Shown piece by piece: positions 14,402 through 64,000 of a stretch of DNA of 64,000 nucleotides. Below the pieces are notes generated by a model. The model saw nothing but the letters and a program-made list of their open reading frames with translations. It was not told the DNA's origin and searched no databases. The position numbers and the translations under genes are program-made. Origin of the DNA: an uncultured virus (IMG/VR IMGVR_UViG_3300032030_000052). Taxonomy: Duplodnaviria > Heunggongvirae > Uroviricota > Caudoviricetes. The stretch lies in the IMG/VR virus record IMGVR_UViG_3300032030_000052; one strand, given 5' to 3'. How positions within the stretch are numbered: the stretch's first letter is position 1; each line of letters begins with the position of its first letter.

Positions 14402-14439
14402 CATAAAAGCGGATGTTTTTTTCGCGTGCCCTAGAAATT

Positions 14440-14510
14440 GGCAGACCTGCGCCGTCCTGCCTCGGATTTAACCGATACTGATGCGTGGCAAGGACGACGG
14501 GGTTTCTGCC
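14440..14510 (-). ncRNA. unidentified structured RNA 4 nt downstream of the tRNA
   Basis: Nested stems GGCAGA/TCTGCC, CGTCGTCC/GGACGGCG, TGCC/GGCA and apical hairpin TCGG-TTAAAT-CCGA. Confidence 0.45.
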
Positions 14511-14514
14511 GGAG

Positions 14515-14587
14515 TGGGCGCAGCCGGACTCGAACCGACAACCTACTGCTTATGAGGCAGCAGCTCTAACCATTGCGCTATACGCCC
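14515..14587 (-). tRNA. tRNA with CAT anticodon (Met or Ile2), CCA not encoded
   Basis: Cloverleaf: GGGCGTA/TGCGCCC acceptor, GCTGC-CTCATAA-GCAGT anticodon arm, GTCGG-TTCGAGT-CCGGC T arm. Confidence 0.9.
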
Positions 14588-14593
14588 CGAATA

Positions 14594-14625
14594 GAAAAGA
14601 GGAAGTATCGATGTGATACTTCCTC
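14594..14625 (-). terminator. intrinsic terminator directly upstream of tRNA
   Basis: GAGGAAGTATC-ACATC-GATACTTCCTC-TTTTCT. Confidence 0.7.
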
Positions 14626-14633
14626 GATTTAGT

Positions 14634-14768
14634 TCATTCTTCGTCTGTTTGCTTCTCTTCTCGTTCATTAGGTCTGGGAAGAAAATGTCTGTCATAATCA
14701 ACGCCGTCTTCTTTTAGGCATACGCGATCATCGTCTGTGAAAATCAGAGGCTTCTTGTCATTACTCAT
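14634..14768 (-). CDS. small hypothetical protein (44 aa)
   Basis: MSNDKKPLIFTDDDRV..., read manually; overlaps upstream stop (ATGA). Confidence 0.5.
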   Translation of the reverse strand: MSNDKKPLIFTDDDRVCLKEDGVDYDRHFLPRPNEREEKQTDEE

Positions 14769-15523
14769 AGTTTCACCTTCATTCCTTCCTTTGCTAATTC
14801 GTTCTTGACTGCCTCGTAATTGTCGAGGATGTCCTGAACTTTCAGAAAGCTCGAAGCTGGTTTGTCGCTTATCTTCTTTAGAGCCTCATTCGCTCTAAAG
14901 ATGATGATTGGATCGTGAGCTTTGTTGTATGTGCCACGGTTGTTATCGTCAACCATACCGTCATACTTACTCTGCATGCGTTCACAATACTCTTTCGTAC
15001 TCTTGTAATAATACGACGCTTCCATAGCGTGGGAGAAAATGGAATAGGCTACTCGCCAATCATTGTCTGTCTTTATGTTGTCGGGATCGAAGCCGCGAAA
15101 CTCTTTTTGTTCTTGCTCGTTTCCAACGTTATAGTTCACGAGTTGCGTTTGAACAGACTTCAAATCCTTGATTAGATCTTTCTTGTTCAGATTCTTGAAC
15201 TCGTCGATGCGATCTTTTTCCGTCGCCATCTTGAGATCCTTTATGGTCTCGTACTTGTGCTCAGCGATAAATTGGGCACCGCGGTACATTACGAGATATT
15301 TCGCAAACGGACCCTTGTATACTTTGTTGTCCCATGAATCTTCATCACGATACGTGTACACCCATTTGCCGTTGTCTTTGTATTTATCAGCGTCGAAGTA
15401 TTTTCCGGTCACGCTGTTCAATCTTGTTCCGGCTTTCAGAAACGTACCATTAGCGGTTGTGAATCGACCAGTTTGCGAATCATGATTCGGATTGAAATGA
15501 CTCAACCATTCGCAGTAGTCCAT
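14765..15523 (-). CDS. HFNPNH-motif protein 5 with globular (possibly ART-like) domain
   Basis: WLSHFNPNHDSQTGRF; shares LKAGT...KDLK...YD..xD..PI motifs with 16045-17187. Confidence 0.75.
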   Translation of the reverse strand: MDYCEWLSHFNPNHDSQTGRFTTANGTFLKAGTRLNSVTGKYFDADKYKDNGKWVYTYRDEDSWDNKVYKGPFAKYLVMYRGAQFIAEHKYETIKDLKMATEKDRIDEFKNLNKKDLIKDLKSVQTQLVNYNVGNEQEQKEFRGFDPDNIKTDNDWRVAYSIFSHAMEASYYYKSTKEYCERMQSKYDGMVDDNNRGTYNKAHDPIIIFRANEALKKISDKPASSFLKVQDILDNYEAVKNELAKEGMKVKL

Positions 15524-15544
15524 GAGTATTCCTCCAATCTTAAC

Positions 15545-15740
15545 TTATGAATAGATTCGTGGTGCCTTGTTAATCGTATCGATAAGCTTCTCAGATTTAT
15601 CGTTTCCAATTTCGCAGCACATATCAATCAAACTGTTGAATGTCATGGATGCATCTTTGCCGTCAATGATATATATCGTTTCGACATAGTCTCCAGACTT
15701 GTATGCTTCTTTGCTGCTTACCGTTACGAAATAATACTTA
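15545..15740 (-). pseudogene. 5'-truncated ORF remnant fused to truncated tRNA
   Basis: Open frame KYYFVTVSSKEAY...KAPRIYS* with no N-terminal start or RBS. Confidence 0.5.
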
Positions 15741-15791
15741 CGACCACCCGGTTATGAGCCGGGAGCTCTAACCAACTGAGCTTAACGGCCC
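15741..15791 (-). pseudogene. truncated tRNA(CAT) lacking T arm and 3' acceptor strand
   Basis: GGGCCGTTAAGCTCAGTTGGTTAGAGCTCCCGG-CTCATAA-CCGGGTGGTCG, then unrelated sequence. Confidence 0.75.
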
Positions 15792-16044
15792 TAAATAGAA
15801 AAAGAGGAAGTCTCGATGTAAGGCTTCCTCGATTTGTTATTTGTTTTTTCGATTCTCTGCTTCTTTCTTTATCGATTCACGAATCATATCATGGTCGATA
15901 CATTTGGTTCCGACATATATGTAAACCACTGCTTTGTCTGTTTCTTTTTCATCGATAGTGCCAATTCACATATATGCCTCAACGGCATTTTCGAATGCAT
16001 AATCCATTCTTATCGCCAACCCTTTTTGTTCACATTAACCCAAA

Positions 16045-17187
16045 TTAAATTCGGGTTAGCAATTTTTTGATATCGACATTGCCCTTATCATTATTGATGG
16101 CTGCAAGTTCTTTCATATGAGTTGGTAATTCGGAAACGCCTGCTTTCAAAAGTGTTTTTAAGGTGCCGGTCTTCATAGCTCTAGTCACCTCGGTCTCTCC
16201 TTTTTTAATGACTCCGCTTTGAGGATCGAGGAGGATGAGCGGTGCCTCTGCGAGTTGATCTCCGATATCATGATAGTCGTGGAGTGCATCATAACCAGCA
16301 TCTTTAAGCGCCTTTGTTAATATATCTGAATCTTTTCCGCGCTTCACCATAGCATAAACGCCAACATAGAAATCGTCGTTACCACGTTCACCAAGTGCCT
16401 GTCTAAACGCTTTTTCGATAAAATCGGGCGAGCATAAACCAAGAAATGGTTTTTGTCTACGTGCCTCTGCGACAAGCGTATCACGAAGGGCTTGCTGATA
16501 TTGTGGATTTTCTTTCCATAAAGCATCGAAAATCTGTCGGGCTTTCTGTTCTGTTGGAATTTTCAAATCCTTTATGGCTTCATATGTGGCGTCATATCTT
16601 TTTCCAGTACCAGCCCAGTCGGCTAGCAACGTCATATATACAGCACGATCTTTCGGCTTATACGCACCGTAGGTTATGCCTGCTTCCTTTGAGATGTCTC
16701 TTCCTGCAATGCCTTCCATTCGATGTATAAGCGTTCCAGCCTTGAGTATTTCGGTCTCTTCATCGAGTGCTTGAGTCATGACGTCCTGAAACTGCTTTTT
16801 GTCAGTAACACCAGCATCGAGAAGTCCTTTGATTTTTTCAGTCGCGTGCAGACGATGAGCAATAATGATACCGGCAGTCACACCAACTGCCGCGACTGCG
16901 CCTATTGTTGCAATTTTGAGGGCCTTCTTTTGCTGTTCAGTTAGTCCTTTCTTTTTAGAGTCGGATTCATTATTAGAGATACCCATCTTTTCTCTAATCC
17001 GATCTTTCTTAATACCCTCTCGCATTTCGTTTATCATCTTATTATACGACTTACTATCGGTTTTGTCAAGTTTACCTCCAGAACGTCCGCCTTTCTTATC
17101 CGTAAACTGTCCGTTATCCGGATCATGATTCGGGTTGAAATGGATAAGAACTGCTCTAGGGTCATTCGTGTAATCTATACCATTCAT
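16045..17187 (-). CDS. HFNPNH-motif protein 6 with TM helix and possible ART-like domain
   Basis: VLIHFNPNHDPDNGQF; hydrophobic helix; LKAGTLIHR...GYDALHDYHD...PLILLD. Confidence 0.8.
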   Translation of the reverse strand: MNGIDYTNDPRAVLIHFNPNHDPDNGQFTDKKGGRSGGKLDKTDSKSYNKMINEMREGIKKDRIREKMGISNNESDSKKKGLTEQQKKALKIATIGAVAAVGVTAGIIIAHRLHATEKIKGLLDAGVTDKKQFQDVMTQALDEETEILKAGTLIHRMEGIAGRDISKEAGITYGAYKPKDRAVYMTLLADWAGTGKRYDATYEAIKDLKIPTEQKARQIFDALWKENPQYQQALRDTLVAEARRQKPFLGLCSPDFIEKAFRQALGERGNDDFYVGVYAMVKRGKDSDILTKALKDAGYDALHDYHDIGDQLAEAPLILLDPQSGVIKKGETEVTRAMKTGTLKTLLKAGVSELPTHMKELAAINNDKGNVDIKKLLTRI

Positions 17188-17250
17188 AATCGTGTCCTCC
17201 TTAAAGTCAACAATTCGTAAAAAGATAGAGAAGGTGTATCCTTCTCTTGT

Positions 17251-17317
17251 AGACTGACAGGGAATCGAACCCTGATACTTGCTGGTTACCCAGTCGTTCC
17301 TTCAACTCTAGTCTCTC
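17251..17317 (-). ncRNA. tRNA-like RNA A (degenerate)
   Basis: Perfect T arm CAGGG-TTCGATT-CCCTG, CTGG-GTAA-CCAG arm, AGACT/AGTCT closing stem; promoter motif 17318-17342 and terminator 17219-17247. Confidence 0.6.
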
Positions 17318-17342
17318 CATTATATTCCTTGTAGATTTCGCG

Positions 17343-17756
17343 TCATCGTTTCCACGGACATGTATCATTCGGTCGACGCTCGACAATTCCATTTTGATTT
17401 GCTAGACTAAAGTCGCCGTAGTGTATCGCATCATGCGTTCGCTTGCATGTGCTTATAAGATACTCGGGATTCAAGAGGATGTCAGACTTTCTGATAATAT
17501 CCTCTTTTCTTATAGGATTCATGTGATGTACGAGAATTCGACCATGCATCTCATATCCTTCGAGTCCGAGATCACAGCCGTTATCTCTGATAATGACTTC
17601 TCGCTTGGCGTCTTCCCAGAGACTTGAATGATAGAACGTTTGATTGAGCCACCGGTCGTATCCGAAAGTTTCCTCTCCGACTCTTCCGTCAAGTTTGAGA
17701 TATTCGAAACGCTCCTTGAACGTTCTAAGCTTGATGAGCTCTGAGTAGGTTCGCAT
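17343..17756 (-). CDS. HNH endonuclease (terminase-associated)
   Basis: RDNGCDL...VHHMNP...THDAIH; near small terminase. Confidence 0.85.
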   Translation of the reverse strand: MRTYSELIKLRTFKERFEYLKLDGRVGEETFGYDRWLNQTFYHSSLWEDAKREVIIRDNGCDLGLEGYEMHGRILVHHMNPIRKEDIIRKSDILLNPEYLISTCKRTHDAIHYGDFSLANQNGIVERRPNDTCPWKR

Positions 17757-17822
17757 GTTTTACTCCTTCTATAATGGAAAGCTGTCCAAAAACCAACTCA
17801 CAATACGAAAGGAGTATGTATC

Positions 17823-18578
17823 ATGAGTAATCAGGACACTATAAAGAAACTGGGGGCCGTTGTTAACGAGAACCTGCCCCACATTCTGACTGGAGTGGCA
17901 GCGGTCGGTGTAGTCACCACAGCTATTGAATCGGCGAAAGCTGCACTCAAGATCAATGACATGGACACTAACGAAGAGGATGATCGTAAGGCATCGGAAA
18001 AGGCGAAATCCGTATTCTTTGCACTTCTCCCTCCGGTAGTATCTGGAGCGCTTACGCTCGGGTGTCTGATTTCATCCGACGTAGTACACACCAAGCGTTA
18101 CACGTCCCTGCTCGGCGCGTTCGTACTTGCGAAAGGCGAACTGCCGAAGTATAAAGAGGAACTTGCTAAGATTGTGAGTCCGGAAAAGAAGAAAGAGATC
18201 GAAAGACAGATGGCAGAAAACAGAGTCAAGGAAAACACTACTGTCGAAGCGGCGGCTTCGCGGTACCTTGACGAAAGCAAGTATGTCAAACACAGAGTCG
18301 TCGATCTGGTTACCGGAGCCACACTCAAAGCATCCTATGCAGCACTGCTTAGAGGTGAGACAGAGGTTGCAAAGGAGATCGCGAGAACGGGACATTGCAC
18401 GCTTGAGACGTTCTACTCGTTTGTTACGGATGAAGCAGACTATCCGGAGATTGCTACAAGAATCTACTGGGATCAGGAAGAACGCAGAAACCAGATGGAT
18501 CTTCACATCGGTGCTGAGATCGAACCCGAAACGGGAGAGATGTACTATACCATTGACTATGAGTATGAGACCCGATAA
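17823..18578 (+). CDS. DUF6353-like protein, the only convincing plus-strand gene
   Basis: RBS GAAAGGAG; NLPHILTGVAAVGVVTTA N-terminus paralogous to genes at 55.5-60 kb. Confidence 0.8.
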   Translation: MSNQDTIKKLGAVVNENLPHILTGVAAVGVVTTAIESAKAALKINDMDTNEEDDRKASEKAKSVFFALLPPVVSGALTLGCLISSDVVHTKRYTSLLGAFVLAKGELPKYKEELAKIVSPEKKKEIERQMAENRVKENTTVEAAASRYLDESKYVKHRVVDLVTGATLKASYAALLRGETEVAKEIARTGHCTLETFYSFVTDEADYPEIATRIYWDQEERRNQMDLHIGAEIEPETGEMYYTIDYEYETR

Positions 18579-18655
18579 CGAGTGACAAACTGACAGCTTC
18601 CAAAAGTTATGAATTAGGGTTGGTTCTAAGAGGTCTACACGGCCTCTTAGTTTTT

Positions 18656-19198: not shown

Positions 19199-19333
19199 CT
19201 GCCATGGGAAAAAGCGAAATGTTTTTTGGAAAATTTCCCCCGCGGGATTTTTGAAGATAGCTGCGATGAGGGAGGGGGTGTATTTTTCAGACCCCTCCCC
19301 CGGGTCACGGCAATTGTGCACCCGTCCTATGTT

Positions 19334-19603: not shown

Positions 19604-19614
19604 TACAATTCACC

Positions 19615-22488
19615 TCAACTCTTCTTGAAATATTTATTCACTGTTGAAGTTGAAACTCCGACAGCTTTTGCGATTTCATCAACTGTGTATCCAGAATTTT
19701 TCATAGCTTCGATCTTGTTTTGCTTTGCTGTAGAGATCGTCGTAGTCTCACGAGGAGTCGCTCTTTCACGAAGCTTATCAAGATCTGTAGCTTTAAGTAT
19801 CGAATAAAGCTGATTCTCAGATATAGCACCCGCCTGGATAGCCTCCCACTCACGGTCGGATATCTCGATAGCGTGTCTTTGGGCACCCACTTGTAGTCTA
19901 GCCGTTGTAAGAGCCTGCTGAGCTGCTTTCTTCTTCTCCTTAGAGGTCATATCTGGATTCTCCTGCCTCTTAGCTTCCATAGTAGCGTTAGCCATTATCT
20001 GTGCTGCGCGTTCTCTGGGAGCATTAGCCTGTGCTATCTCAAGCTGATTGAGAAGATTCTTCCGCTCTTCGGCATATTTCTCCTTAGCCTCCTTGGAGTA
20101 CTGGATGCGCCCCGTGTTAACCATTTCAAGACGGGCTTTATTAGCCAAATCTTTCATGTAATTAGCATAGGATGCATAGAGTTCCTCTTGAGGTGTTCCA
20201 GAAGAGAGCTTACGGGCGTCTGTTTCCTCCGCCATGCGAGTTGAATCTTGCATGCGGACTTTCTCTTTGCCCTTTTTATCCGTATAAGTCTCGACAACGG
20301 ACTTATAAACGAGTGCGCCTTCAGGTTTTGTGGGATCATACCACTCTTTACCCTTCTGATTGACTTTCGGCGAGCCTTGACGCTTAAGAACTTGAACATC
20401 AGACGATGCTTTGGAGATCAGAGTCGATGCACCTTCGTGATAATCGCCATTTTCATCAAGATGTCCCTGATATTTCTTCTTGAGTTCAGCAATGGCATTA
20501 TCTTTCTCAGACTGTTTGTAATCCAGACCGTGTTTTGCGGCATCGATAACAACCATACTGTGACGAACAGCACGAGCGAGCTCCGCTTCTGTAGCACCTT
20601 TAAGAGTCATATCGGTAATTAGATTCGATACGATTCCCATTTGCATCTGTGTACTATCACCGCCGGTCTTAGGATTCTTCATAGGTTTGAATTCTTGACC
20701 ATTGCGGTAATAATGTTCAATGCCTTTGGCGTCTGTCTTGATCTCATCGTACTTGTAGGACTTAGAATCGAATCCCTCAAGTCCTTTGAGCGGCGGTGTA
20801 GAGTTAATCTTGATCTTGCTCTGTTCTGAATTGCACGGGACAACAAGAACTGTATCACCATCGAAGTCTGCTCCAGACAGACGCTCTGCTACTTTACTGC
20901 TAATACCAACAGCATCAGCAGCAGTCGGCGTGATTACACGTTTACCCTCTTTATTCTTGTTATTGACTTTGAGAATCGGGATCTCAAATGTTCCACCATG
21001 AGGAAATCTGATAAGAGCAACAGTCTCGCCGTCGTGGAATTGAGGAGCGAAGACCTCATTATCTTTGATGTCGGTAAGAGGAAGAATGACCTGATACTTC
21101 TGACGAGGGAGTGATGCTGCTTTCAAATGAACAGCGGCGGAATCGCAGTCATTGGCAAACGTCTCAAGCATGACTTTCTTCAATGTCGGATTCGTAAGAG
21201 ACGAGATCTCATCGAATTCCGCTTTCTTATCCATCTGAGACAGGGTAAGCTGTTTCTTGATAAGCTGAAGACTCTGCTTAGACAGGAACTGGGACGGAAG
21301 CTCTTTGCTCCATTCACCCCAGTCACCTTCGGTTCTGGTCTTATTGATAAGGCTAAGAGATTGAGCCTGACCGTCAGAACCGGTGAAACGACCATTGGGA
21401 TCGTCGTAATAGCTCTGACCGCCTCGTTCTTTAAGAAGCGCTCCGAACGGATTATCAGGATCAGATTTGATCTTCTTCAGAACTTCCATTTTAGGAGTGC
21501 TCTTATGCTTATTAGTGTTGAAGATAACATCGACACCATCAGGGAAGTCTTTAGGATCTCCGTAAACAGCCATTCCTTTGATGTAATGTGTTCCGTCGAC
21601 GAGAATTCGAACCTGAGCATATGCTGAATTACCAAGAGAAAGATCTTTTACACCTGGACGAAGCTCGACAACTCCGTCTTTCTTGATTCCACCATCTTCA
21701 GCATAGCGAATCTGCATTCTCTTACTATCCATAGATTCAGGATATTCGAATGCTTTCTTGAAAGTGTCTCCGCCATCATAGCTGATATAGTCTTTGACGG
21801 TGTGGATTTTGCTGGAGTCGTAAACTTCTTTGTACTCGGTATCTTTCGGGCACAACACCATGGTGATCGTCTGTCTACCCGGATTCGTGACCTGCGCAAC
21901 GCCACGAGTATAAATCGGATAGCCATCAGCTTCGAGAATGGCAAGAGCCTGACCGAACTTCTCTCTAGAAACGCCGAGTTCTCTCTCAACACCTTCGCCT
22001 ACGTCAAGCATTCCCTTTTCAGCGATGGTCTTCTTGAGAATATCAGCTGTTGCTTGAGCCGCGTTCATTCGCTTCTCAGAATTCTCATTGAGAAGAGATC
22101 GAACAGACGAGTCATTCTTGTAACCCATGATCCGAGCTATTTCATTGAGGCTCTTACCATCATCTCTCAGAGACTTAGCACGAGCGACTTCAAGAGAGCG
22201 GCGTTCACTCTTAGCAATTGCCTTATATGCTCTCAGCTGAGTTGTCGTGATCTCCTGACCATCAGGAAGCTCTTTGTTGATAGCATCGACAATCTGCTTC
22301 TCCGACAGACCTTTCTTATGAAGCTGCTCCACTCGAGACAAGAAGTCACCAGAGTGCTGATACGGGTTTTCACCGCTTCCCCATGGATAACGACCAGAAC
22401 GTCGCTTAATACCATAGTGTCTCAAATCAGTCGGCTCTTCAAGTTCATCGAATCGCCGTTTCTTAATAGCATCAGCTACGTGGTTCAT
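19615..22488 (-). CDS. putative single-chain two-barrel (YonO/RdRP-like) RNA polymerase with HTH domains
   Basis: QVRI...KGM, LIRFPH and LSGADFDGD motifs; N- and C-terminal HTH-like segments. Confidence 0.8.
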   Translation of the reverse strand: MNHVADAIKKRRFDELEEPTDLRHYGIKRRSGRYPWGSGENPYQHSGDFLSRVEQLHKKGLSEKQIVDAINKELPDGQEITTTQLRAYKAIAKSERRSLEVARAKSLRDDGKSLNEIARIMGYKNDSSVRSLLNENSEKRMNAAQATADILKKTIAEKGMLDVGEGVERELGVSREKFGQALAILEADGYPIYTRGVAQVTNPGRQTITMVLCPKDTEYKEVYDSSKIHTVKDYISYDGGDTFKKAFEYPESMDSKRMQIRYAEDGGIKKDGVVELRPGVKDLSLGNSAYAQVRILVDGTHYIKGMAVYGDPKDFPDGVDVIFNTNKHKSTPKMEVLKKIKSDPDNPFGALLKERGGQSYYDDPNGRFTGSDGQAQSLSLINKTRTEGDWGEWSKELPSQFLSKQSLQLIKKQLTLSQMDKKAEFDEISSLTNPTLKKVMLETFANDCDSAAVHLKAASLPRQKYQVILPLTDIKDNEVFAPQFHDGETVALIRFPHGGTFEIPILKVNNKNKEGKRVITPTAADAVGISSKVAERLSGADFDGDTVLVVPCNSEQSKIKINSTPPLKGLEGFDSKSYKYDEIKTDAKGIEHYYRNGQEFKPMKNPKTGGDSTQMQMGIVSNLITDMTLKGATEAELARAVRHSMVVIDAAKHGLDYKQSEKDNAIAELKKKYQGHLDENGDYHEGASTLISKASSDVQVLKRQGSPKVNQKGKEWYDPTKPEGALVYKSVVETYTDKKGKEKVRMQDSTRMAEETDARKLSSGTPQEELYASYANYMKDLANKARLEMVNTGRIQYSKEAKEKYAEERKNLLNQLEIAQANAPRERAAQIMANATMEAKRQENPDMTSKEKKKAAQQALTTARLQVGAQRHAIEISDREWEAIQAGAISENQLYSILKATDLDKLRERATPRETTTISTAKQNKIEAMKNSGYTVDEIAKAVGVSTSTVNKYFKKS

Positions 22489-23437: not shown

Positions 23438-24021
23438 ACCTATTCTCCTTTCACGTTTTTCATTGAGATCATTCGCTATGATTTACCATCAACTGAAAAA
23501 CGAAAAGAGAAAGAGAGGTAAATTATACTCATTTCTGAGGACATTCTAACCTCTCTCCTCATAAAAGCGGATGTTTTTTTCGCGTACTGTCAGATTCTCA
23601 CCAGATTTCTTAAAGACCTCTCAATTAACATCAATGTTACCATGGTTGCCGTCTCTTTGACAAATCTGATTTCACGAATAATCTTTAACCCAGTAAAACA
23701 ATCCGAAAGTTTTAATATCTTAAAGATTATTGATATGAATCTTGCAGTACGCCATAAAACACCTCACTTACCATCAGCAATCACTTGGACTGCTTCTTCT
23801 GGTCTTCGCGTGTCTTCTTCGCACGCCGTCTTCTCTCAACACGGTTCTCACCATGCTTGAACTGACAGTCGCGCCAAGAATCGGGATCACGCTTGATCGC
23901 CCGAGTAATTGTTCTCGTCATACTTGCCATAGCTCTCACCTCCTTTCGCCATCGCATAATATTTGTTGTATTGAAACTGCAAACGAAAATATCTCCGTCA
24001 TGCAGACACAACCTTGTTGGA

Positions 24022-28910: not shown

Positions 28911-28969
28911 CATTATATAAGATGTAAATGTTGCGAAGCTCAGGTTTCATCGCTTTTGATTGATTAGTC

Positions 28970-37876: not shown

Positions 37877-37959
37877 GGTGATTTACACTCCTCGAATAAA
37901 AAATAGAAGAGGACCTGTCACATCCTCTTCATAAAATCACCTGTAAACTTCGCGAGGTA

Positions 37960-38535: not shown

Positions 38536-38779
38536 TGTTTTTATCCTCCTCTTCAAATTCACTATTCTTGATCCAGTGTTTCTCGCTCTCGTAACGATGA
38601 ACAGATTCACTGTCAGTCACGTTAATGGTGCGGATGGCAAACAGGTTATGCGGGTCATCATATCTTGATACAAGTTCACCAAGCAACATCAGTGCACAAT
38701 CGAGATCACTTACCTGCGCGATAACTCGAGTCATGCCATTCGGGTAAACTTCAACCACGATATAATTGTGTTCACACAT
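38528..38779 (-). CDS. hypothetical protein
   Basis: Start MCEHNY chosen by AAGGAGG RBS. Confidence 0.6.
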   Translation of the reverse strand: MCEHNYIVVEVYPNGMTRVIAQVSDLDCALMLLGELVSRYDDPHNLFAIRTINVTDSESVHRYESEKHWIKNSEFEEEDKNND

Positions 38780-39650
38780 CTTCTTTTTCCTCCTTACCAT
38801 TGATAATCGTTTCTTCTCCAGTCGCCGGATTGATACACGTCAGCTCGATATCCGGATTCTCGTCCGCCCACATCTGCGCAAGAAGCAGAGTAACATGGGT
38901 GATATATGCTTCCGCTTCCTTGAGATCAGTGCTATTTGTGTTACTTTCGGTTTCGCCCGCGATATGACCCTCGATGCACACCATGGCGTTGTCAAGATCA
39001 TTAAGCATACCGAGCAGAGAGTTTCTCTGAGCAGTAGAGATAAGCTCATCGTACTTATCGAAGAACGCATCAACCACGTCGAGTTCCTCTTCGTAAGTCT
39101 TTGGTTTGTACTCGATGGGTGAATCTTCTTTCTCGGGTACAATCTCAACCGTAGTAGGCAGGGGATACCGTGACATATACTTCTTCTCGAGCTCATCGAT
39201 GCCGAGTTCCTTGCGAGCTCTCTCATCGTCGATAACCGCAGCGCTGTATTTGATAGCTCGATCAAGCTCTTCCTTCGTAGCGCCGTTGATAGCCATGGTG
39301 GCGATAAGATCAGCCATGTAATGTTTCGAAGTCTTTTTAGTACTTTCGTTGATCGCCTTACGAATAATGTCTACCGCTCGCGAATCGACGAACTTATCAA
39401 GCCAGTCATCAGTATAACCAAAATTAGGAATACCGATAGCGTCAATGATATTGTTCCGGAACTTCACGAGCTTGTCATAGTCCTCATAAGGTTTCTTCTG
39501 ATACTTAGCACGGTCGAAACCATCGTCTTTGAAATTATCGCATCCATCTTCGACACTCTTATCCTCGATGTATCCGCTTACGTCGCACAAGAAACCGTCG
39601 TATTTGATTTCTTCACAATTCTTACAGTGTGCACATAATGATTCTTCCAT
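38772..39650 (-). CDS. mosaic hypothetical protein containing a segment similar to the phage RNAP
   Basis: MADLIATMAINGATKEELDRAIKYSAAVID. Confidence 0.7.
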   Translation of the reverse strand: MEESLCAHCKNCEEIKYDGFLCDVSGYIEDKSVEDGCDNFKDDGFDRAKYQKKPYEDYDKLVKFRNNIIDAIGIPNFGYTDDWLDKFVDSRAVDIIRKAINESTKKTSKHYMADLIATMAINGATKEELDRAIKYSAAVIDDERARKELGIDELEKKYMSRYPLPTTVEIVPEKEDSPIEYKPKTYEEELDVVDAFFDKYDELISTAQRNSLLGMLNDLDNAMVCIEGHIAGETESNTNSTDLKEAEAYITHVTLLLAQMWADENPDIELTCINPATGEETIINGKEEKEDV

Positions 39651-42188: not shown

Positions 42189-42445
42189 TTGATTTCACCT
42201 CCTTCATCCTCGAATACTTCCCAGTCGTCGGCAAAGATGTCATGTGTGGTGATGTGATGAACGATAAAGGTCCTCCAACGAACCTTTTCGCCCGCTTTAG
42301 ATGCTCTGATATGCTTGAGAAGACAGGGAAACTCATGGTCATAATCCTCGTCGATACCGATACTGAAGCAGATAGTTCCACGGTATTTCGGTCTCGTGAT
42401 TTTCATACCGGCTCTCAGCTGAGCCATGACTTCTTCAAAGGTCAT
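42185..42445 (-). CDS. DUF2829-like small protein
   Basis: MTFEE...G.K..R...DIFADDWEV. Confidence 0.6.
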   Translation of the reverse strand: MTFEEVMAQLRAGMKITRPKYRGTICFSIGIDEDYDHEFPCLLKHIRASKAGEKVRWRTFIVHHITTHDIFADDWEVFEDEGGEIK

Positions 42446-43101
42446 ACCGATTCCTCCTTCGTGGATTCAGAACAGTATCCATCAATAAACTCGTGGATTT
42501 CTTCAAGACACTTTTTGCCGAGGTTTCTGAATGACATGAGTGTCTTATCGTCAGTAGAAAGAAGATCATCTATGGTCTCGATCCCGTTTCGCTTCAAAGC
42601 AGCATATGTTCGAATCGAGAAATCACAGTTTTCAATACCGGAATCTCGAGAAAGAGGCTCCTTCTCGATAATTACTGAGTGATGACCAGCTGCGTAACCA
42701 TGGTCGTATCCAAGAGTATATGCTTCGTCACGTACTCTCTTGAAGTTTTGAAAGAAATTATATGATATACCAAGACGGATCATATTGCGGTAGGTTTCGC
42801 ATCCGCCAATATATTCGATTGCTTTACAGATATAGGCAGATACGCATGAGCGGGTGATGCCAAAGTCGACGGCGATATTATGCATACTGCTTCCGAAGCG
42901 GTAATACTCCTGAACGAAAGTACTGCCCAAGATTCTGGATTTTGTTGTACTATGACGCATCCGTGCGAATAGATACTCCAGAACTTCTTCAATGTCTTCA
43001 GGAGCGTCATCCTCGCATTCCGGCAGTTTGTCATGGGCATCGATTCGCTTATTGATCTCAGCCAAGAAGTTATACGGCCATTTAAGATCAGAATTTTTCA
43101 T
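42442..43101 (-). CDS. HTH plus RNA polymerase alpha-CTD-like domain protein
   Basis: IENCDFSIRTYAALKRNGIETIDDLL...FRNLGKKCLEEI. Confidence 0.8.
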   Translation of the reverse strand: MKNSDLKWPYNFLAEINKRIDAHDKLPECEDDAPEDIEEVLEYLFARMRHSTTKSRILGSTFVQEYYRFGSSMHNIAVDFGITRSCVSAYICKAIEYIGGCETYRNMIRLGISYNFFQNFKRVRDEAYTLGYDHGYAAGHHSVIIEKEPLSRDSGIENCDFSIRTYAALKRNGIETIDDLLSTDDKTLMSFRNLGKKCLEEIHEFIDGYCSESTKEESV

Positions 43102-43651: not shown

Positions 43652-43695
43652 CACTACATACCTTGTTATTTTCGCGTAAAAAGGAAAAGCACTCG

Positions 43696-43917: not shown

Positions 43918-43958
43918 TAGGACCACCTCCTCATCAAAGAGGTTGCAGTTTTCGCGAA

Positions 43959-44650: not shown

Positions 44651-44714
44651 ACAAATTCCTCCTTAATATCATTTGGGACTTATTTCCCATTATATAAGGA
44701 GTAATTTTTGCGAA

Positions 44715-49414: not shown

Positions 49415-49464
49415 GACTTAACACCTCCTTTCTCCATTACAGACGCTGTGTTTTGTGCGGAGCG

Positions 49465-55471: not shown

Positions 55472-56461
55472 TTACGCGGATTTCTTATCTTTATATTTGT
55501 CGAAGGAATAGAGAATATCGCCGTCGACATTGAATTCCAGAACGAGAGAAGCTTCGCCGGGAACTTCCTCGCCATTGTCGTACGCTCTGTAGATCTTGTC
55601 GATTCCGAAATCAATGTAGTTGTCACCCTTATGATTCGGATTATTGGGCTCGTACGTCCAACCCACTGCCTGACCTTTTGCGGTGAGCGGCAGTCCGAGA
55701 CGGTGACGAACCTCATTCAGAGTTACAGGTTTGCCGTTACGGAGCTGAAGCACGGAATTGAGATAAGACTGCTCGGATCTGAGCCAGAACAGATTGCGGT
55801 CGATATCCGGATTCCATGCCGTATTTACAGTACCATCAGAATTATATTTGGTGAACAGCGCTGTATAGTCATCGTCGTCGGCAATCATAACAGTTTGCTT
55901 CTGCTCGACAACATTACCATCCTCATCCGTGGTCGTCATGGTGATGTCTTTTGCCCGCATGTTGTGGTAGATGGCTTTCTCTTCTTCTTCGCCAAACTTA
56001 TCGCGGACTCGCTTACGGTAATCTTTGAACTTCGCCGCAAGAGCCGCATAAGCCGCTGAAGCCATGGCAAGACGCTCGGACAGTGTCTTATAACCCTTGA
56101 TCTGACAGAAGATAGACAGACCGATAAGAATTAGAGACATCAGATACAGTCTCAAGCACTTGACTCCGGTCTTGATAAGAGTCGTGAAACTGTCTTTCTT
56201 GGCGTCCTCATGGGTATACTCAACGATTTCACCCTTCTCGTTTGTGGTCTTGCCGGTTTCTTCGCATTTATGGATTGTTTCCATCTGCTTCTTATGGTCT
56301 TCCAGAACCTCCTGAGCCTTGATAGTGGCTCTGCAAGCAGTCACGACACCGGCGATGGTTGTTACGATGCCAACTGCGAGGCAAATTTCAGGCGAGTGCT
56401 TCTGGATTTTCCAGCTTGTAGAGTTGATAAACCCTTTGATATTATCCATGAATTTACTCAT
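55472..56461 (-). CDS. DUF6353-like protein
   Basis: KHSPEI...G.VTAC.AT.K; LNEV...G..VGW; FNVDG. Confidence 0.75.
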   Translation of the reverse strand: MSKFMDNIKGFINSTSWKIQKHSPEICLAVGIVTTIAGVVTACRATIKAQEVLEDHKKQMETIHKCEETGKTTNEKGEIVEYTHEDAKKDSFTTLIKTGVKCLRLYLMSLILIGLSIFCQIKGYKTLSERLAMASAAYAALAAKFKDYRKRVRDKFGEEEEKAIYHNMRAKDITMTTTDEDGNVVEQKQTVMIADDDDYTALFTKYNSDGTVNTAWNPDIDRNLFWLRSEQSYLNSVLQLRNGKPVTLNEVRHRLGLPLTAKGQAVGWTYEPNNPNHKGDNYIDFGIDKIYRAYDNGEEVPGEASLVLEFNVDGDILYSFDKYKDKKSA

Positions 56462-57695: not shown

Positions 57696-57766
57696 AATGA
57701 TTCTCCTTTTCGAAAATATTTTTGTGGGATGTCTTCCCATAATACACTTTGTGATTTTCGCGTACC

Positions 57767-58606
57767 TTACCGAATATAATCAGGCTCGCGATGGCGTTTG
57801 AATGACATTACATAACAAGGCGTCCCGTCTTCCCAGTGATCTTGTTCGAACGGAACGCCATCGACATCTACGTCAAACTCAATACCTCCAGCATCTGCTG
57901 TCCATCCCATCATTGGGGATACAGCCGTGTGTCTGAGTTTCGGATAGACACCTTGCTCATTAAGCTCATCATACAGATCTGATATTGTGATGTAAGGTTC
58001 CAGACCGGTGAATAACCTCTTATTGAGCTTCACTTCAGCTTTTTCGAGCATCTGTACGCTCGCGTAGAATGGTGTGTTAGATAGCGGATCCCAAAACGGA
58101 TGAACGCCTGCAATATTCGACGGCGGTAACTTGGAAACAGCTTCCTGTACCATAGGACTCCTCGCCACATCTCTGTTGACTTCAGATTTGATCTCATCTG
58201 CTTTCTCCTTGCCGAGGACTTCCTCGTTCTTTTCTTCCATTCTCTTGATGATGCCTCTGGAAATAGCAAGAGCAGCGGCAGTCTCAGCATATTGGTCGGA
58301 TCTTGCTTTCATGCCCTTGGCTACACACAGTACACCGGTACCAAAAGCAATCGCAGGTGCAACAAACGGTTTCCATCCTGCTTTTACAGTTTCGACTACT
58401 GTGAGCGAATCCTCTTTTTCATCTTCAGCTTCGATAATGAGTTCTTCTGCTTTCGGTGTCGCTCTAACTGCCAGAACGATGGCTGTTGCGAAGCTTAGAA
58501 CTCCGAAACCGACAAGGAGCTCTGGACCCCGTTTTGTCAACGTCGTAGAAGCTACATCAGCAACCGATTTTGTGATTCTCTTAAAGAATCCTTGAAAATT
58601 CACCAT
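57767..58606 (-). CDS. DUF6353-like protein
   Basis: GPELLVG.G....A..LAV.ATPKA. Confidence 0.75.
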   Translation of the reverse strand: MVNFQGFFKRITKSVADVASTTLTKRGPELLVGFGVLSFATAIVLAVRATPKAEELIIEAEDEKEDSLTVVETVKAGWKPFVAPAIAFGTGVLCVAKGMKARSDQYAETAAALAISRGIIKRMEEKNEEVLGKEKADEIKSEVNRDVARSPMVQEAVSKLPPSNIAGVHPFWDPLSNTPFYASVQMLEKAEVKLNKRLFTGLEPYITISDLYDELNEQGVYPKLRHTAVSPMMGWTADAGGIEFDVDVDGVPFEQDHWEDGTPCYVMSFKRHREPDYIR

Positions 58607-58617
58607 TATCACTCCTT

Positions 58618-58929
58618 TCAACTGGTGAGAATTAAATCAATAATGTCCTCTACTGCCGCTAAAGATATACTAAAAACATAATCGTTAGTACATCCAGTGT
58701 GCGCCCATTCGTCAAATCTAGTGAGCATGTGCTCAAGGACATTCAATGGCGTATCATGAGACCGGTATACCTCCCTATACGCAGCCTTGATAGCAAAACT
58801 ATAAAGGTAGTTCTTTTCGTCCGAAAAGTATGGATTAGAATGGTGCTTATAGTATTCTGATATTATATCAAGAACATGCCTTTTAGCCGCAATGTATGCC
58901 TTATTATTCCTGCTAGTTCGTTCGGACAT
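58618..58929 (-). CDS. hypothetical protein
   Basis: ORF with GAAAGGAG RBS. Confidence 0.6.
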   Translation of the reverse strand: MSERTSRNNKAYIAAKRHVLDIISEYYKHHSNPYFSDEKNYLYSFAIKAAYREVYRSHDTPLNVLEHMLTRFDEWAHTGCTNDYVFSISLAAVEDIIDLILTS

Positions 58930-59147: not shown

Positions 59148-59195
59148 AAGCTAAACCTCCTTTCCATTATAGTCCTTGCGATTCGTGCGGAGTTG

Positions 59196-60047
59196 TCAAA
59201 AAGGAATGGTCTTGTCTGACAAGACATCTTCGATGGTGTATGGATTGCCATCATCGTCATAATATCGGTCATCAAGAGGGTCGTAATTCAGGTAATCCGG
59301 TATTGGAGAAGTGGTCGTCGAGATGACGAGTGCTTCCATACCATCTCCGAGATCGACCGGATCGCTAATATTGAAGTCAATCCATGTGAAATCGTCGCAT
59401 AACACCCATCCTCTGGTATCATGCTTCTTGTTCTTGATACCGAGAAAATTACACCACATGTCGACATCGACTTCTGGATGTCCCATGGTGAAGTTTCTGT
59501 TCAGAGCATTGATAGCATCATAGACCTGAGCGAGCGTCGATGTGAAATACGTCTCGGTAATATCATCGTAAAACAGAAACTCCTCTTTGCTAAGCTTGCT
59601 ATTAAGTGACGTCATCTCGCACATCGATTCAGCGCAGATGTTCGACTGTTCTGCTTTCTCAACAGCGAGTTTCTGCATCACCTTATCGTCAGCTTCTTTG
59701 CCGTTTACTTCGATATTGGCTTTACGGTAATCGTCATATTTCTTGGCAATACCAGCAGCACCGGCGCCAAGAACAGCGATGTGCTTCTTGTCGATTTTGC
59801 GAGAACCCACGATACAGGCAACGGTTCCGACCGCAGCCACAGCAGCACCTGCGAGTGGTTTAGCCGAAGCCTGAATCTTTTCGAATGTCGTAAGCTCATC
59901 GCGCTTTTCTTCGGTCCATTCTTTGATAGTCTCCTGAGCTTTGATGGTTCCTTTATAAGTAAGAATAGCGGTTAAAGCTACACCGACGCAAGCAGCCATC
60001 GATAAAATGCCGGATGCGTTTTTAGATAGCCATTTTGAAATGTTCAT
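59196..60047 (-). CDS. DUF6353-like protein
   Basis: KNASGILS..A..GV..TA.L...T.KA. Confidence 0.75.
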   Translation of the reverse strand: MNISKWLSKNASGILSMAACVGVALTAILTYKGTIKAQETIKEWTEEKRDELTTFEKIQASAKPLAGAAVAAVGTVACIVGSRKIDKKHIAVLGAGAAGIAKKYDDYRKANIEVNGKEADDKVMQKLAVEKAEQSNICAESMCEMTSLNSKLSKEEFLFYDDITETYFTSTLAQVYDAINALNRNFTMGHPEVDVDMWCNFLGIKNKKHDTRGWVLCDDFTWIDFNISDPVDLGDGMEALVISTTTSPIPDYLNYDPLDDRYYDDDGNPYTIEDVLSDKTIPF

Positions 60048-60107
60048 ACCTTTCTCCTTTCGCGAATACAAGAGTCAAGAGGAGTTGCAACAACCCCTCT
60101 CGAGTCT

Positions 60108-60326: not shown

Positions 60327-60395
60327 ACCTTTCTCCTTTCAGAATTGACGGATTTTCTTCCATTATATAGGGTGCAAAATGCGCGGAAAGAAAAA

Positions 60396-60470
60396 GAAAC
60401 AGTGTTGGAATCGAACCAACGTCCTCTATCGTTTCTGATAGTGCTCCAACCTTGCTGAGCTAACTGTCTC
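60396..60470 (-). ncRNA. tRNA-like RNA B (cloverleaf, 6-nt anticodon loop AGAAAC, no CCA)
   Basis: AGACAGT-TA-GCTC/GAGC-A-CTATC/GATAG-AGGAC-GTTGG-TTCGATT-CCAAC-ACTGTTT then T-run; promoter motif 60472-60496. Confidence 0.8.
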
Positions 60471-60518
60471 TCATAATATGATTTGTAAATTTCGCGTAAG
60501 AAAAAGAAAAGGAGCCCC

Positions 60519-60737: not shown

Positions 60738-60870
60738 AACAATTACCTCCAAATATAATTTTTGATCGGGATCGTTCCCATTATACAGGGTGTAAATAAT
60801 GCGCAAAAGAAAAATAATAAGCAGTGATTCATTCGATTCCATTATGTGCTTTCTGCACCCGCTTAAACCC

Positions 60871-60946
60871 AAGAAGATATGTGGGAATCGAACCCACGAC
60901 CTCAAGCGTTTCAGCTTGTGTGCTCCCATTGCACCTCTATCTTCTC
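60871..60946 (-). ncRNA. tRNA-like RNA C (cloverleaf, 6-nt anticodon loop TGAAAC, no CCA)
   Basis: AGAAGATA/TATCTTCT, GTGC/GCAC, CAAGC/GCTTG, AGGTC, GTGGG-TTCGATT-CCCAC; promoter motif 60946-60970. Confidence 0.8.
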
Positions 60947-61021
60947 ATAATAAGCGTTGCAAATTTCGCGCAAAAGAAAAAAGCCAATGCGATCGTCACC
61001 GCACAGGCTCAATTCTGTTAA

Positions 61022-61264: not shown

Positions 61265-61296
61265 ACTGATTACTCCTTTCGTGCTAGGTTATAGAT

Positions 61297-61325
61297 AGTA
61301 TATCATAACCATTTTGAATTGTCAA
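61297..61325 (-). promoter_or_regulatory. sigma70/sigmaA-type promoter
   Basis: TTGACA-N17-TATACT upstream of 61264. Confidence 0.75.
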
Positions 61326-61394
61326 GGATAATCAGAGCTCTTTTCTCCTCATAATATTCGATGCGAAAATGGCGCAAAAAAGGAAGAGCTCTTG

Positions 61395-61727
61395 TCAGAG
61401 CTCCCCAATTGTAAGTTGATCCATCCTTTCAATTCCGATTTTAACCATGTATTCAGATATTTCTGCTATCATTTCTTGTGGAATTTTACTGAGTGCGTCA
61501 TATCCGTACTTCTTCTTTACATTACGGCGAACGTAATCTCTAAAATATGCCATTCTGCTTTCATCTAATACACCCTTATTGTGTATTGAAGTTTTCTTGA
61601 ATACTTTAGATGCTGCGTACCGCCATAACTCTGCCCATACGTCTTGAGCCCACTTGGCTTGTCCTCCGATCTTGATAACTCTGTATCCGTTATTTTCAAG
61701 TTCAGTTTTCATCTCTTCTAGTGTCAT
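61395..61727 (-). CDS. cassette-borne hypothetical protein
   Basis: Promoter motif 61742-61766; AGGAGG RBS. Confidence 0.65.
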   Translation of the reverse strand: MTLEEMKTELENNGYRVIKIGGQAKWAQDVWAELWRYAASKVFKKTSIHNKGVLDESRMAYFRDYVRRNVKKKYGYDALSKIPQEMIAEISEYMVKIGIERMDQLTIGEL

Positions 61728-61817
61728 ATAGACCACCTCCTCATTACATACTATGTATTTTTAGCGCAAAAAGGAAAAGCCCACGTATAACACGCGAGCG
61801 ATTCCTTTTGACGAACC

Positions 61818-62432
61818 TCACTTCTTCGTAGGTTTCAGTTTCCCGATGAATGTTCTCAGTGTTCCGGATGTGAATGCTCCGGTCTGCTCGAATTTCAGTC
61901 CTTCCTTGATCCATTCGCCATAGAATAACACCGGTACCACGATGCCTGCGGTCTCTACTGCGGTTTTGAGTACCGCTCCGCAAACGTCAAGTCCGACTCT
62001 GACCCAGCCTTCAGATTTCTCATGCTTAAGACGCTTAACCTCAACTTCGTTCTTCTGTCTCTCGATATCCAACCGCTCTCGTTCGATAGCGAGCCGCTCT
62101 TTCTCGATTTCGTCCCGTGCCTTTTCGGCATCGACCTTGTTTTGATCGATATCGGCACGGCGCTTATCAAGCTCCAAGCGATCGCTGTCGAGTTTCAAAC
62201 GATCCTCTTCGAGACGAATCTTTGCTTCATTGAGCTCTTTTTCGTCTTTAGCAGCATCTGCTTTTGCGTCAGCATCGACGTCCGTTACGTAATGTGTAAC
62301 TCTCTCCTTGTAGAGTTTCGCAAGTCCTTCGATGGCCCGGGCATATTCCGGTTTCTCCGGATCGAGGTTTTTGATCTTCAATACCTCCCGTTTGATTTCC
62401 TCATCCATTACGTCAGTAAGATCAACCATCAT
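61818..62432 (-). CDS. coiled-coil protein with C-terminal hydrophobic segment
   Basis: Heptad-like ERL repeats; GLKFEQTG; promoter motif 62474-62498. Confidence 0.7.
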   Translation of the reverse strand: MMVDLTDVMDEEIKREVLKIKNLDPEKPEYARAIEGLAKLYKERVTHYVTDVDADAKADAAKDEKELNEAKIRLEEDRLKLDSDRLELDKRRADIDQNKVDAEKARDEIEKERLAIERERLDIERQKNEVEVKRLKHEKSEGWVRVGLDVCGAVLKTAVETAGIVVPVLFYGEWIKEGLKFEQTGAFTSGTLRTFIGKLKPTKK

Positions 62433-62487
62433 TGCCTTTTTTCTCCTTTCGAAAATTTAGTGAGCTTTCGCTCCATTATAGCGTACG

Positions 62488-62718
62488 TTATTCTCGCGTG
62501 ATGGGTGTGAGATCTACCTTCAGCAAGATCTCGTCCTGTCCAAGGATGTATTGGACTGGGATTCCGTCCGACAGCTCCATGAACAAATAGGGCTCGCCTG
62601 TGGAGTTGTCCATACGAAGCTTACCGACTCGCCTATGCTTGTGGCTGCCGGTTAAGAACGCTCCGACACACGATCCGCCAAGGACAAAACCGATCACGAA
62701 AAACAGAATCTTAACCAT
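62488..62718 (-). CDS. small membrane protein
   Basis: TM then VGKLRMD...EPYLFMEL. Confidence 0.65.
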   Translation of the reverse strand: MVKILFFVIGFVLGGSCVGAFLTGSHKHRRVGKLRMDNSTGEPYLFMELSDGIPVQYILGQDEILLKVDLTPITRE

Positions 62719-62799
62719 AGGATATATCACCTCCTTTACAATTCTACCATGATTTTTGGGTTGCGTCGTGATGACTTTAGAAAAAGGAAAGAGACCCCG

Positions 62800-63042
62800 T
62801 TACAGGGTCTCGATACCTTTCTTGTAGTCTCTTAATGATTGCTTTGCTCGAAGATACATGAGTTTTGTGTCGATGATTTGCTCTGTATGATGGAGAGAAC
62901 GCAGTAACAACGACACAGCGTATGCCGAAACACCATAGTTTACTGATCTAAGCGCTTCGTTTCGCTCTTCGTCGATTTGTCTCTTCTCCATGTTTAATCT
63001 GATCTCTTCGCAAATATCTTTGATCTCCTTCGTGGTTTTCAT
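62800..63042 (-). CDS. cassette-borne hypothetical protein
   Basis: Promoter variant 63057-63081; terminator 62781-62811. Confidence 0.65.
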   Translation of the reverse strand: MKTTKEIKDICEEIRLNMEKRQIDEERNEALRSVNYGVSAYAVSLLLRSLHHTEQIIDTKLMYLRAKQSLRDYKKGIETL

Positions 63043-63121
63043 ATAAGACCACCTCCCATTACAGAGGTTGTAGATTATGTGAAAAGGAAAGAGACTCCGC
63101 AGAGCCTCAGTCCATTTTTTG

Positions 63122-63325
63122 TTATGCTATTTTGTATTCGTATTTAACTTCGAATGGGATGTCTTCTGATGTCACAACAACATCGCTCTTTAATTCATCA
63201 AGCAGGAAAATGAAATCCAAGATATATTCGGCGGCGTCTTCGTCCGTATCGAACGATTTCACCCAGTCATATATCGGAACATCTTTTCCTTCGGTTTTTG
63301 CGAAAGCGACAAAATTGTACAACAT
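63122..63325 (-). CDS. cassette-borne hypothetical protein
   Basis: MLYNF start; promoter motif 63341-63365. Confidence 0.65.
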   Translation of the reverse strand: MLYNFVAFAKTEGKDVPIYDWVKSFDTDEDAAEYILDFIFLLDELKSDVVVTSEDIPFEVKYEYKIA

Positions 63326-63402
63326 ATTTATCCCTCCTTTCATAATGGAAGGAGCAAATATCGCGTAAAAAGGAAAGAGACTCCGTAGAGCCTCTCGCCT
63401 AT

Positions 63403-63675
63403 TCAGAAATAAAATCCACATGTATCATACAATAATTTTTCGATACGTAACTTGAGCATCGGATCTCTTTCTGCCAATCCATCGAGAACTGCGCAAATCG
63501 CAATGCAAGTACACTTCGTAATTGGCGTGCGCCCACTTTCCATGTTGTTTATGGACTGTCTGGTAACACCAATCAGATTGCCAAATTGCTCTGCGCTAAG
63601 ATTTGCGTATCCTCTGATTTCTTGCAGTCGATCCTTAAGTAAGTCATGTACGCTTTCGTTATATGGTAGTAACAT
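63403..63675 (-). CDS. XRE-family HTH regulator (cassette-borne)
   Basis: LQEIRGYANLSAEQFGNLIGVTRQSINNMESG; promoter motif 63689-63713. Confidence 0.8.
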   Translation of the reverse strand: MLLPYNESVHDLLKDRLQEIRGYANLSAEQFGNLIGVTRQSINNMESGRTPITKCTCIAICAVLDGLAERDPMLKLRIEKLLYDTCGFYF

Positions 63676-63729
63676 ATAGACCACCTCCCATTACATAGGT
63701 TGCAGATTATGCGAAAAGAAGAGGCGCTG

Positions 63730-63954
63730 TTAAGCAACCTCTTCTATAGACAGCGAATACTCAACCTCATTGATAACAAAGACGATCGCCACCATGATAT
63801 TGTCGTCGTTATACTGCGGATGATATCCGTCGGGATCATAATGATAAAAATATAATTCATCAAATCGATCTCGCATGAAATCTTCCGCAGCATCTATGGT
63901 CTGAAACCCACCATATGATGTCTCCGTCTTTGTATCGAATACCGTGTAAGTCAT
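63730..63954 (-). CDS. cassette-borne hypothetical protein
   Basis: Promoter motif 63970-63994; AGGAGG RBS. Confidence 0.65.
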   Translation of the reverse strand: MTYTVFDTKTETSYGGFQTIDAAEDFMRDRFDELYFYHYDPDGYHPQYNDDNIMVAIVFVINEVEYSLSIEEVA

Positions 63955-64000
63955 AGTATCCCTCCTTTCTATAATGGAAGGAGTTATTCTCGCGCACGAT

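Follow-up and report, generated by a model that had tools for sequence, protein, structure and literature searches.

A fixed-spacing 25-bp element as a candidate promoter of a single-chain phage RNA polymerase

The repeated element and its genomic setting

The DNA analysed here (the window, 64,000 nt in length) belongs to an 83,155-bp record of an uncultured virus of the Caudoviricetes (IMG/VR IMGVR_UViG_3300032030_000052), which carries siphovirus genes for a portal, a protease-capsid fusion and a primase-polymerase fusion. The phage is temperate, and its integrase gene is located outside the window behind a perfect sigma-A promoter (genome position 64851). The window encodes a 957-amino-acid (aa) protein that models as a QDE-1-like single-chain two-barrel RNA polymerase with fused helix-turn-helix (HTH) domains, and it also contains a 25-bp motif in many copies (Table 1). 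A preliminary description, made from the sequence alone, regarded this motif as a promoter class read either by the phage polymerase or by host RNA polymerase (RNAP) with a phage activator.

The motif is a real, highly non-random element. A self-trained weight matrix, started from the 11 matches to the literal consensus, gave exactly 23 sites in the window (14402-63994), in agreement with the earlier estimate of about 23, and one more at genome position 64524, namely 24 in the genome. These sites scored 21-31 bits (16.5-30 bits when each was left out of training) and the next best 12 bits, while order-3 Markov simulations gave a mean of 0.2 matches at 14 bits or above. The invariant spacing reported before was also reproduced: the true spacer yielded 22 matches, and spacers shifted by -2, -1, +1 or +2 yielded none. 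The earlier consensus, CGC-N7-(A/G)C(A/T)-N5-TATAATG/TATTATG, was right in its fixed spacing but too narrow as a literal pattern, fitting only 11 of the 23 sites; our working core consensus is CGC-N8-C-N6-YNTNRTR. C1, C3, C12, T21, T24 and a purine at position 25 are invariant across the copies of this genome, and positions 19-24 read TATAAT (8 sites), TATTAT (5), TGTAAT (4), TTTTAT (3), CATTAT (2), TGTAGT (1) and TTTGAT (1). When numbered back from position 25, three conserved blocks lie about one helical turn apart, namely CGC (-24 to -22), (A/G)CA (-14 to -12) and an A/T-rich TNTNRT (-6 to -1), and are followed by the purine.

Every copy is oriented into its downstream gene. Like the genes, 22 of the 23 window sites are on the minus strand, and the lone plus-strand site (17752) precedes a plus-strand DUF6353 gene (17823-18578), as had been noticed before. 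About nine copies lie, by eye, directly 3' of a hairpin and T run, and terminator-promoter-gene cassettes are arrayed at 59-64 kb. The copies heading the polymerase operon (23560-23584) and the virion operon (14402-14426) are identical and define a subclass with an A-tract, CCC, TTTTATG and a purine-rich stem. This A-tract/CCC/TTTTATG subclass is kept in gut relatives and may encode timing or strength. As a separate observation, there are four DUF6353 paralogs (17823-18578, 55472-56461, 57767-58621 and 59196-60071), one of them inverted, on the plus strand and preceded by a motif copy of its own. At the corresponding place in G002, a pair of motif copies overlaps back to back.

Co-occurrence with the polymerase gene

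The motif and the polymerase gene travel together. Matches to the exact pattern were present in 16 of 19 related records and in none of the controls, and a pooled matrix gave 212 sites in the 19 whole related genomes, all of which carry the motif, the Lactococcus phages as variants. These variants were recovered by self-training, with TTT for CGC in P078 (10 sites) and mostly CAC in CHPC971. The motif is also present in 1706, Pepy6, Giantsbane and Vardy. The 957-aa protein matches 250 phage records, those of Arthrobacter, Gordonia, Streptomyces, Lactococcus, Microbacterium, Rhodococcus and Faecalibacterium. Among 174 polymerase loci scanned, 154 had enough upstream DNA, and 152 of these have a site of at least 15 bits at a distance of 600-2200 nt ahead of the polymerase gene. 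In the opposite direction, the first 80 of 161 motif loci led to 57 contigs, of which 50 were taken (seven short ones were dropped; 49 were searchable); the polymerase was encoded in 36 of these 49 viral records found by motif alone, and in 21 of the 22 that were at least 90% complete, although these co-occurrence counts come from related genomes and hence are not independent. The sole exception among the latter (G057, loci L463-L465) has 16-22 motif copies without the whole exonuclease-polymerase-terS-connector block. It also lacks half its DNA polymerase, gave no tape-measure match in the inspected 59.9 of 61.6 kb, and may be a decayed prophage of the same family, misassembled or helper-dependent. 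In five host genomes, 43 of 52 exact matches formed clusters, in prophages of the host chromosomes: by coordinates, 38 are close to the polymerase locus, and the other 5 are on a further contig of one genome. The remaining nine were scattered over about 19 Mb.

Because the signal accompanies the polymerase gene in phages of two bacterial phyla, we consider it likely that the 25-bp element is the private promoter of this 957-aa, 1706-family polymerase. Six other candidate regulators of the phage (four HTH proteins, one alphaCTD-like and one Bro-N) were each found in no more than 1 of the 18 relatives searched. A 219-aa protein (42442-43101, minus strand) has the C-terminal domain of host RNA polymerase alpha (PF03118, E 6e-16); it was not found in the 18 relatives and could interfere with host transcription.

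Two published repeats are very likely the same element, as judged from the motif copies in the regions described: a 50-bp motif in Gordonia phage Vardy, which was read as a sigma-70 TATAAT (PMC9671010), and a 32-bp repeat of Arthrobacter cluster AU phages such as Giantsbane, which was read as a recombination boundary (10.1101/2020.01.10.891226). Six copies of our motif flank Giantsbane genes 37-41 and eight are in the Vardy middle region. In the text covered, each report stays within one cluster, and neither ties its repeat to a phage polymerase or follows it across host phyla. The boundary proposal arose because genes between the repeats are swapped, and many copies of our motif likewise flank small variable genes. 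It is nevertheless highly improbable that the repeats are recombination boundaries or repressor operators rather than promoters: the motif is asymmetric and strand-oriented (346 sense versus 2 antisense matches at the 174 loci, with 6 in reversed sequence), its copies often lie just past terminators and just before a Shine-Dalgarno (SD) sequence or tRNA, its 7-8 conserved positions offer too little homology to select for recombination, and phages described as lytic carry it as well. Any recombination between copies may be secondary.

Start position and fit to host sigma-A

Sigma-A fits the motif poorly. The earlier remark that TTGACA is missing at -35 was borne out, since TTGACA-like matches at spacers of 16-18 reached at most 4 of 6 bases, and this at 4 of 24 sites. 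In sigma-A promoters, the A at -11 is nearly invariant. The corresponding motif position 20 is A in 14 of the 23 window sites and never among 13 oengus sites; upstream of the polymerase gene it is T in 124 of 153 sites and A in 11, and elsewhere A in 86 of 196 copies. On the other hand, position 21 is T in 211 of the 212 pooled sites, and position 25 is a purine in all 212, preceded by T in 206.

A sigma-A start is expected at about motif position 31, 6-8 nt past the hexamer. The SD begins at positions 26-29 in 7 of 23 sites, and at 26 in four of these; at the genuine sigma-A promoters of this genome (61325 and 64851) it lies 12-19 nt past the hexamer. tRNA-like RNAs begin 1-4 nt past position 25 in this phage (two cases), oengus and Kenosha; that of P078 was called 7 nt past it, a distance by itself compatible with a sigma-A start. 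Low-threshold ARAGORN gave many doubtful tRNAs, so that only motif-adjacent ones with clear arms were used. In several leaders the first stem begins at position 25-26. The pairing excess over shuffled downstream sequence peaks at positions 25-28 (z 3.6, 4.8, 3.2 and 2.8) and stays below 2 at 11-24, while whole-leader folding z-scores did not distinguish start positions. Two sheep-gut metatranscriptome runs (one sample) hold the stretch as contigs, with patchy cover and no 5' ends, and were not used. Since SDs, hairpins and tRNA-like RNAs begin at or just past the final purine, transcription likely starts there (position 25 = +1), and the downstream elements from positions 25-29 match the start near the final G expected in the preliminary description.

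These data bear on the possibility that host sigma-A RNAP uses the hexamer as its -10 box with a phage activator bound at CGC-N8-C in a T4 MotA-like manner, the activator possibly being the 957-aa protein itself. Such an arrangement would account for the hexamer, which reads TATAAT or TATTAT in 13 of 24 copies here and in nearly all actinophage copies, and for the fixed spacing, which is expected between activator and -10; it also accords with the sigma-70 reading of the Vardy motif (PMC9671010). However, we regard it as improbable: the -11 A is missing in 124 of the 153 polymerase-upstream sites, the expected sigma-A start would fall downstream of SDs, tRNA stems and hairpins, no other HTH protein is shared among the 18 relatives, and the full invariant catalytic site is kept in 173 of 173 polymerase sequences. 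Of the two options left by the preliminary description, the two-way co-occurrence, the rarity of other regulators (in at most 1 of 18 relatives) and the T at position 20 strongly favour the phage DFDGD polymerase over host RNAP with an activator.

In a mixed use, compatible with a private promoter, position 25 would be the start for the phage enzyme, and host sigma-A RNAP would also use the copies with perfect TATAAT, starting about 6 nt further on; the circuit could then be set going in the absence of packaged enzyme or in addition to it. A at position 20 is commoner away from the polymerase gene (86/196) than upstream of it (11/153), many actinophage leaders have room for a start at 31, and prophages need some host-driven entry. 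We still think this unlikely, though not so much as host transcription with an activator, in view of the lack of a -35 match, the oengus copies without the -11 A, and several cassettes that would lose their SD.

Some RNAs of the window are noted in their own right. Three tRNA-like RNAs on the minus strand (60395-60470, 60873-60944 and about 17248-17318), each behind its own motif copy, have intact acceptor and T arms and abnormal anticodon arms (6-nt loops or a tetraloop). Similar RNAs occur in oengus, Kenosha and P078, and a role as decoys is possible. Moreover, an intact tRNA-Met(CAT) (14514-14587, minus) and a second copy with the same anticodon and a degraded 3' half (15719-15789, minus) are each preceded by a near-identical hairpin.

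Table 1. Motif copies and other features of the window
Feature	Coordinates	Strand	Remark
Protease-capsid polyprotein gene	6700..8631	-	Linker residues about 136-305
Six left-arm genes (9950, 12577, 13049, 13617, 14765, 16045)	9950..17187	-	Products with (L/I)xHFNPxH near N-terminus
Motif copy	14402..14426	-	Heads connector/terminase/capsid/tail/lysis operon; same 39 nt as 23584 copy
Perfect TTGACA-17-TATAAT	17041..17069	-	Within 380-aa gene
Motif copy	17318..17342	-	Before short tRNA-like RNA (T-loop-like arm, by eye) and 380-aa tagged gene
Motif copy	17752..17776	+	Sole plus-strand copy; before DUF6353 gene 17823-18578
Putative 957-aa single-chain two-barrel RNA polymerase gene	19615..22488	-	phrog_4291, phage 1706 ORF75 family
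Motif copy	23560..23584	-	Heads VRR-nuclease/exonuclease/RNA polymerase operon; position kept in 152/154 relatives
Motif copy	28911..28935	-	Long 5' hairpin leader
Motif copy	37930..37954	-	9-bp hairpin beginning at position 25
Motif copy	43652..43676	-	Immediately 3' of terminator-like hairpin and T run
Motif copy	43932..43956	-	SD from position 26
Motif copy	44688..44712	-	Short hairpin from position 25
Motif copy	49435..49459	-	3' of primase-polymerase gene; SD at 31
Motif copy	57738..57762	-	Heads replication block; short hairpin from position 25
Motif copy	59165..59189	-	SD at 29
Motif copy	60361..60385	-	3' of tRNA-like RNA and T run
tRNA-like RNA	60395..60470	-	6-nt anticodon loop; acceptor stem overlaps would-be sigma-A start
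Motif copy	60472..60496	-	tRNA-like RNA beginning 2 nt past position 25
Motif copy	60779..60803	-	Short hairpin from position 25
tRNA-like RNA	60873..60944	-	6-nt anticodon loop
Motif copy	60946..60970	-	tRNA-like RNA beginning 2 nt past position 25
Canonical sigma-A-type promoter TTGACA-17-TATACT	61297..61325	-	Internal control class
Motif copy	61350..61374	-	3' of terminator; tandem with sigma-A-type promoter at 61325
Motif copy	61742..61766	-	SD from position 26
Motif copy	62474..62498	-	GAAA hairpin from position 26
Motif copy	63057..63081	-	CAC variant; SD at 26
Motif copy	63341..63365	-	SD at 28
Motif copy	63689..63713	-	SD at 26
Motif copy	63970..63994	-	Ends in A; SD at 29

The polymerase, its possible packaging and related systems

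In the 957-aa protein, HTH domains at about 63-135 and 920-956 flank the core, which carries ADFDGD at 540-545. D271, R294, K304, R494, P496, D541, D543 and D545 are conserved in 173 of 173 sequences, and were mapped by motif to the eight invariant two-barrel residues listed in the covered part of PMC2919709, where the phage 1706 protein is placed among five YonO-like families. The structure model (predicted local distance difference test (pLDDT) 90.2, predicted template modelling score (pTM) 0.84) has QDE-1 (E 2.7e-9) and RDR2 (Z 15.2, root-mean-square deviation 4.4, 376 aligned) as its best fold matches and also resembles the Thermus phage gp62 and gp64 structures (Z 11.2 and 10.7), all over residues 245-790, while a sequence search of solved structures gave no match for the catalytic core. 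DNA dependence of the enzyme is predicted by analogy with YonO. As side observations, a 292-aa open reading frame (38772-39650, minus) matches phrog_4291 positions 563-632 with its residues 99-161 (E 3e-6) and is possibly a free polymerase-derived domain, and a small open reading frame of G015 matches polymerase residues 612-674. A GC-rich non-coding region at about 19200-19330, 3' of the 89-aa gene that follows the polymerase gene, is likely the genome terminus, because many related contigs stop there and the Pepy6 cos end is there.

With regard to promoter recognition, the second N-terminal HTH has kept R130 in 171 of 173 sequences, and both exceptions have a changed promoter triplet. Three of four R130-less lineages have a changed first triplet, namely TTT in P078, TGC in L009 (one site) and CGA in L451 (one 7.7-bit partial site); two other proteins without R130, used as queries, led to no close locus. 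A coupling of R130 to CGC, which held in 2 of 2 lineages at first and then in 3 of 4 in a prospective test, is kept as a weak lead.

The enzyme may also be carried in the virion. Its residues 12-46 combine disorder in the model with high conservation, and this segment begins with LxHYG; proteins of relatives carry an LxHYGVKGMKWG tag, six left-arm genes encode a similarly placed motif (Table 1), and the linker of the capsid polyprotein has repeated hydrophobic-x-His sites resembling the polymerase tag. In phage 1706, ORF75 (37% identical to the 957-aa protein) and the tagged ORF7 are both labelled 'structural protein' in GenBank (EU081845). Since the homolog ORF75 is so annotated, packaging of the polymerase is plausible. 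The 1706 labels are said to rest on virion mass spectrometry.

Several points weigh against assigning the element to this polymerase. The co-occurrence is confined to one phage lineage, in which kinship alone could link any two core features, and six further genes of this phage likewise recur in 18 of 18 relatives. The folds that match best belong to RNA-dependent polymerases. The R130-less G061/L414 keeps CGC at all 9 pooled-matrix sites in the prospective test, and 1706 and CHPC971 use mostly CAC although R130 is intact. Most actinophage copies keep perfect TATAAT with the SD at positions 37-45, which is compatible with host use too. The tag profile scores the polymerase N-terminus weakly (E 0.3-21; 9/19). 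Moreover, no conserved sigma-A site from which a prophage could first make the enzyme was found before the polymerase operon (9/153).

If the element is the private promoter of the polymerase, the fused HTH domains would bind the upstream blocks on one duplex face and do the job of sigma, and the TATAAT-like hexamer would be the melted region just before +1, not a sigma -10 box, with transcription starting at the final purine. One promoter class would then drive small-gene cassettes, replication genes, tRNA-like RNAs, the virion operon and the polymerase's own operon, which has its own motif copy, whereas host sigma-A promoters would serve the integrase (genome 64851) and a few other genes. 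The loop in which the enzyme needs itself could be started by polymerase that is packaged in the head by virtue of its N-terminal LxH tag and injected with the DNA. More tentatively, a lineage across gut Firmicutes and Actinobacteria might run its whole lytic programme with one head-packaged, sigma-free polymerase of 950 residues. The HTHs of this enzyme would themselves recognise a three-block promoter, and RNA synthesis would begin immediately past a TATAAT-like melt site. In temperate members of the lineage, presence or absence of the enzyme would act as a lysis/lysogeny switch, because the polymerase gene sits behind its own promoter.

The protein is a member of the phage 1706 ORF75 family (phrog_4291) and is 48% identical to the FP_oengus protein, with the same gene neighbourhood, DxDGD, and N- and C-terminal HTHs as found in that family. 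Koert et al. (10.1101/842583) described the phage supercluster and, in the part covered, flagged the protein as a possible polymerase. The covered text of that paper and of PMC2919709 contains no promoter or experiment; the motif link, the start and the packaging tag are additions here. Like the protein studied here, SPbeta YonO comes from a temperate phage of Firmicutes and has a two-barrel core in one chain; it is a DNA-dependent RNAP. Forrest 2017 (PMC5467207, as far as covered) did not determine its promoter sequence. YonO drives one late operon, whereas here the 24 copies stand before every class of gene, the gene of the enzyme itself among them. Thermus phage P23-45 has two two-barrel single-chain RNAPs, gp96 (virion) and gp64 (non-virion), with private promoter motifs by cappable-seq (Chaban 2022, 10.1101/2022.12.01.518664, as far as covered). 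In that phage each enzyme goes with a motif of its own, and the virion enzyme forms a fusion with the tape measure, in contrast to one HTH-fused enzyme with a candidate head-packaging tag here. Sigma-70/sigma-A promoters share the TATAAT-like hexamer, but our motif has no -35, its -11 A is dispensable and its predicted start is directly past the hexamer. T4 middle promoters have a fixed upstream box, a feature shared with this motif. Our literature search, outside which lie published figures, supplements and some original phage reports, found no publication joining the motif to the polymerase, and term look-ups in PMC5513430, PMC12859696, PMC7302621, 10.1101/2022.11.23.517428 and PMC13432834 gave nothing on the motif in the text covered.

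Private promoters of phage RNAPs are already known; this putative one would be new in its sigma-like hexamer directly before +1 and in being read by an HTH-fused, probably packaged two-barrel enzyme. The motif bears on sigma-independent promoter recognition by single-chain relatives of cellular RNA polymerase, an open question. A 212-site consensus, a predicted +1 and the natural variants CGC, CAC and TTT are now to hand, and the motif makes the enzyme directly testable in a family with 250 phage records, of which many are in culture on harmless hosts, and with thousands of relatives from the gut. The assignment would change the annotation of the 'HTH DNA-binding protein' and of the repeats between genes in clusters AM, AU, AW, BI, CC, DJ, EL and FK. 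It could also yield an orthogonal pair of a 25-bp promoter and a polymerase, and may shed light on the ability of these phages to function in hosts from two phyla.

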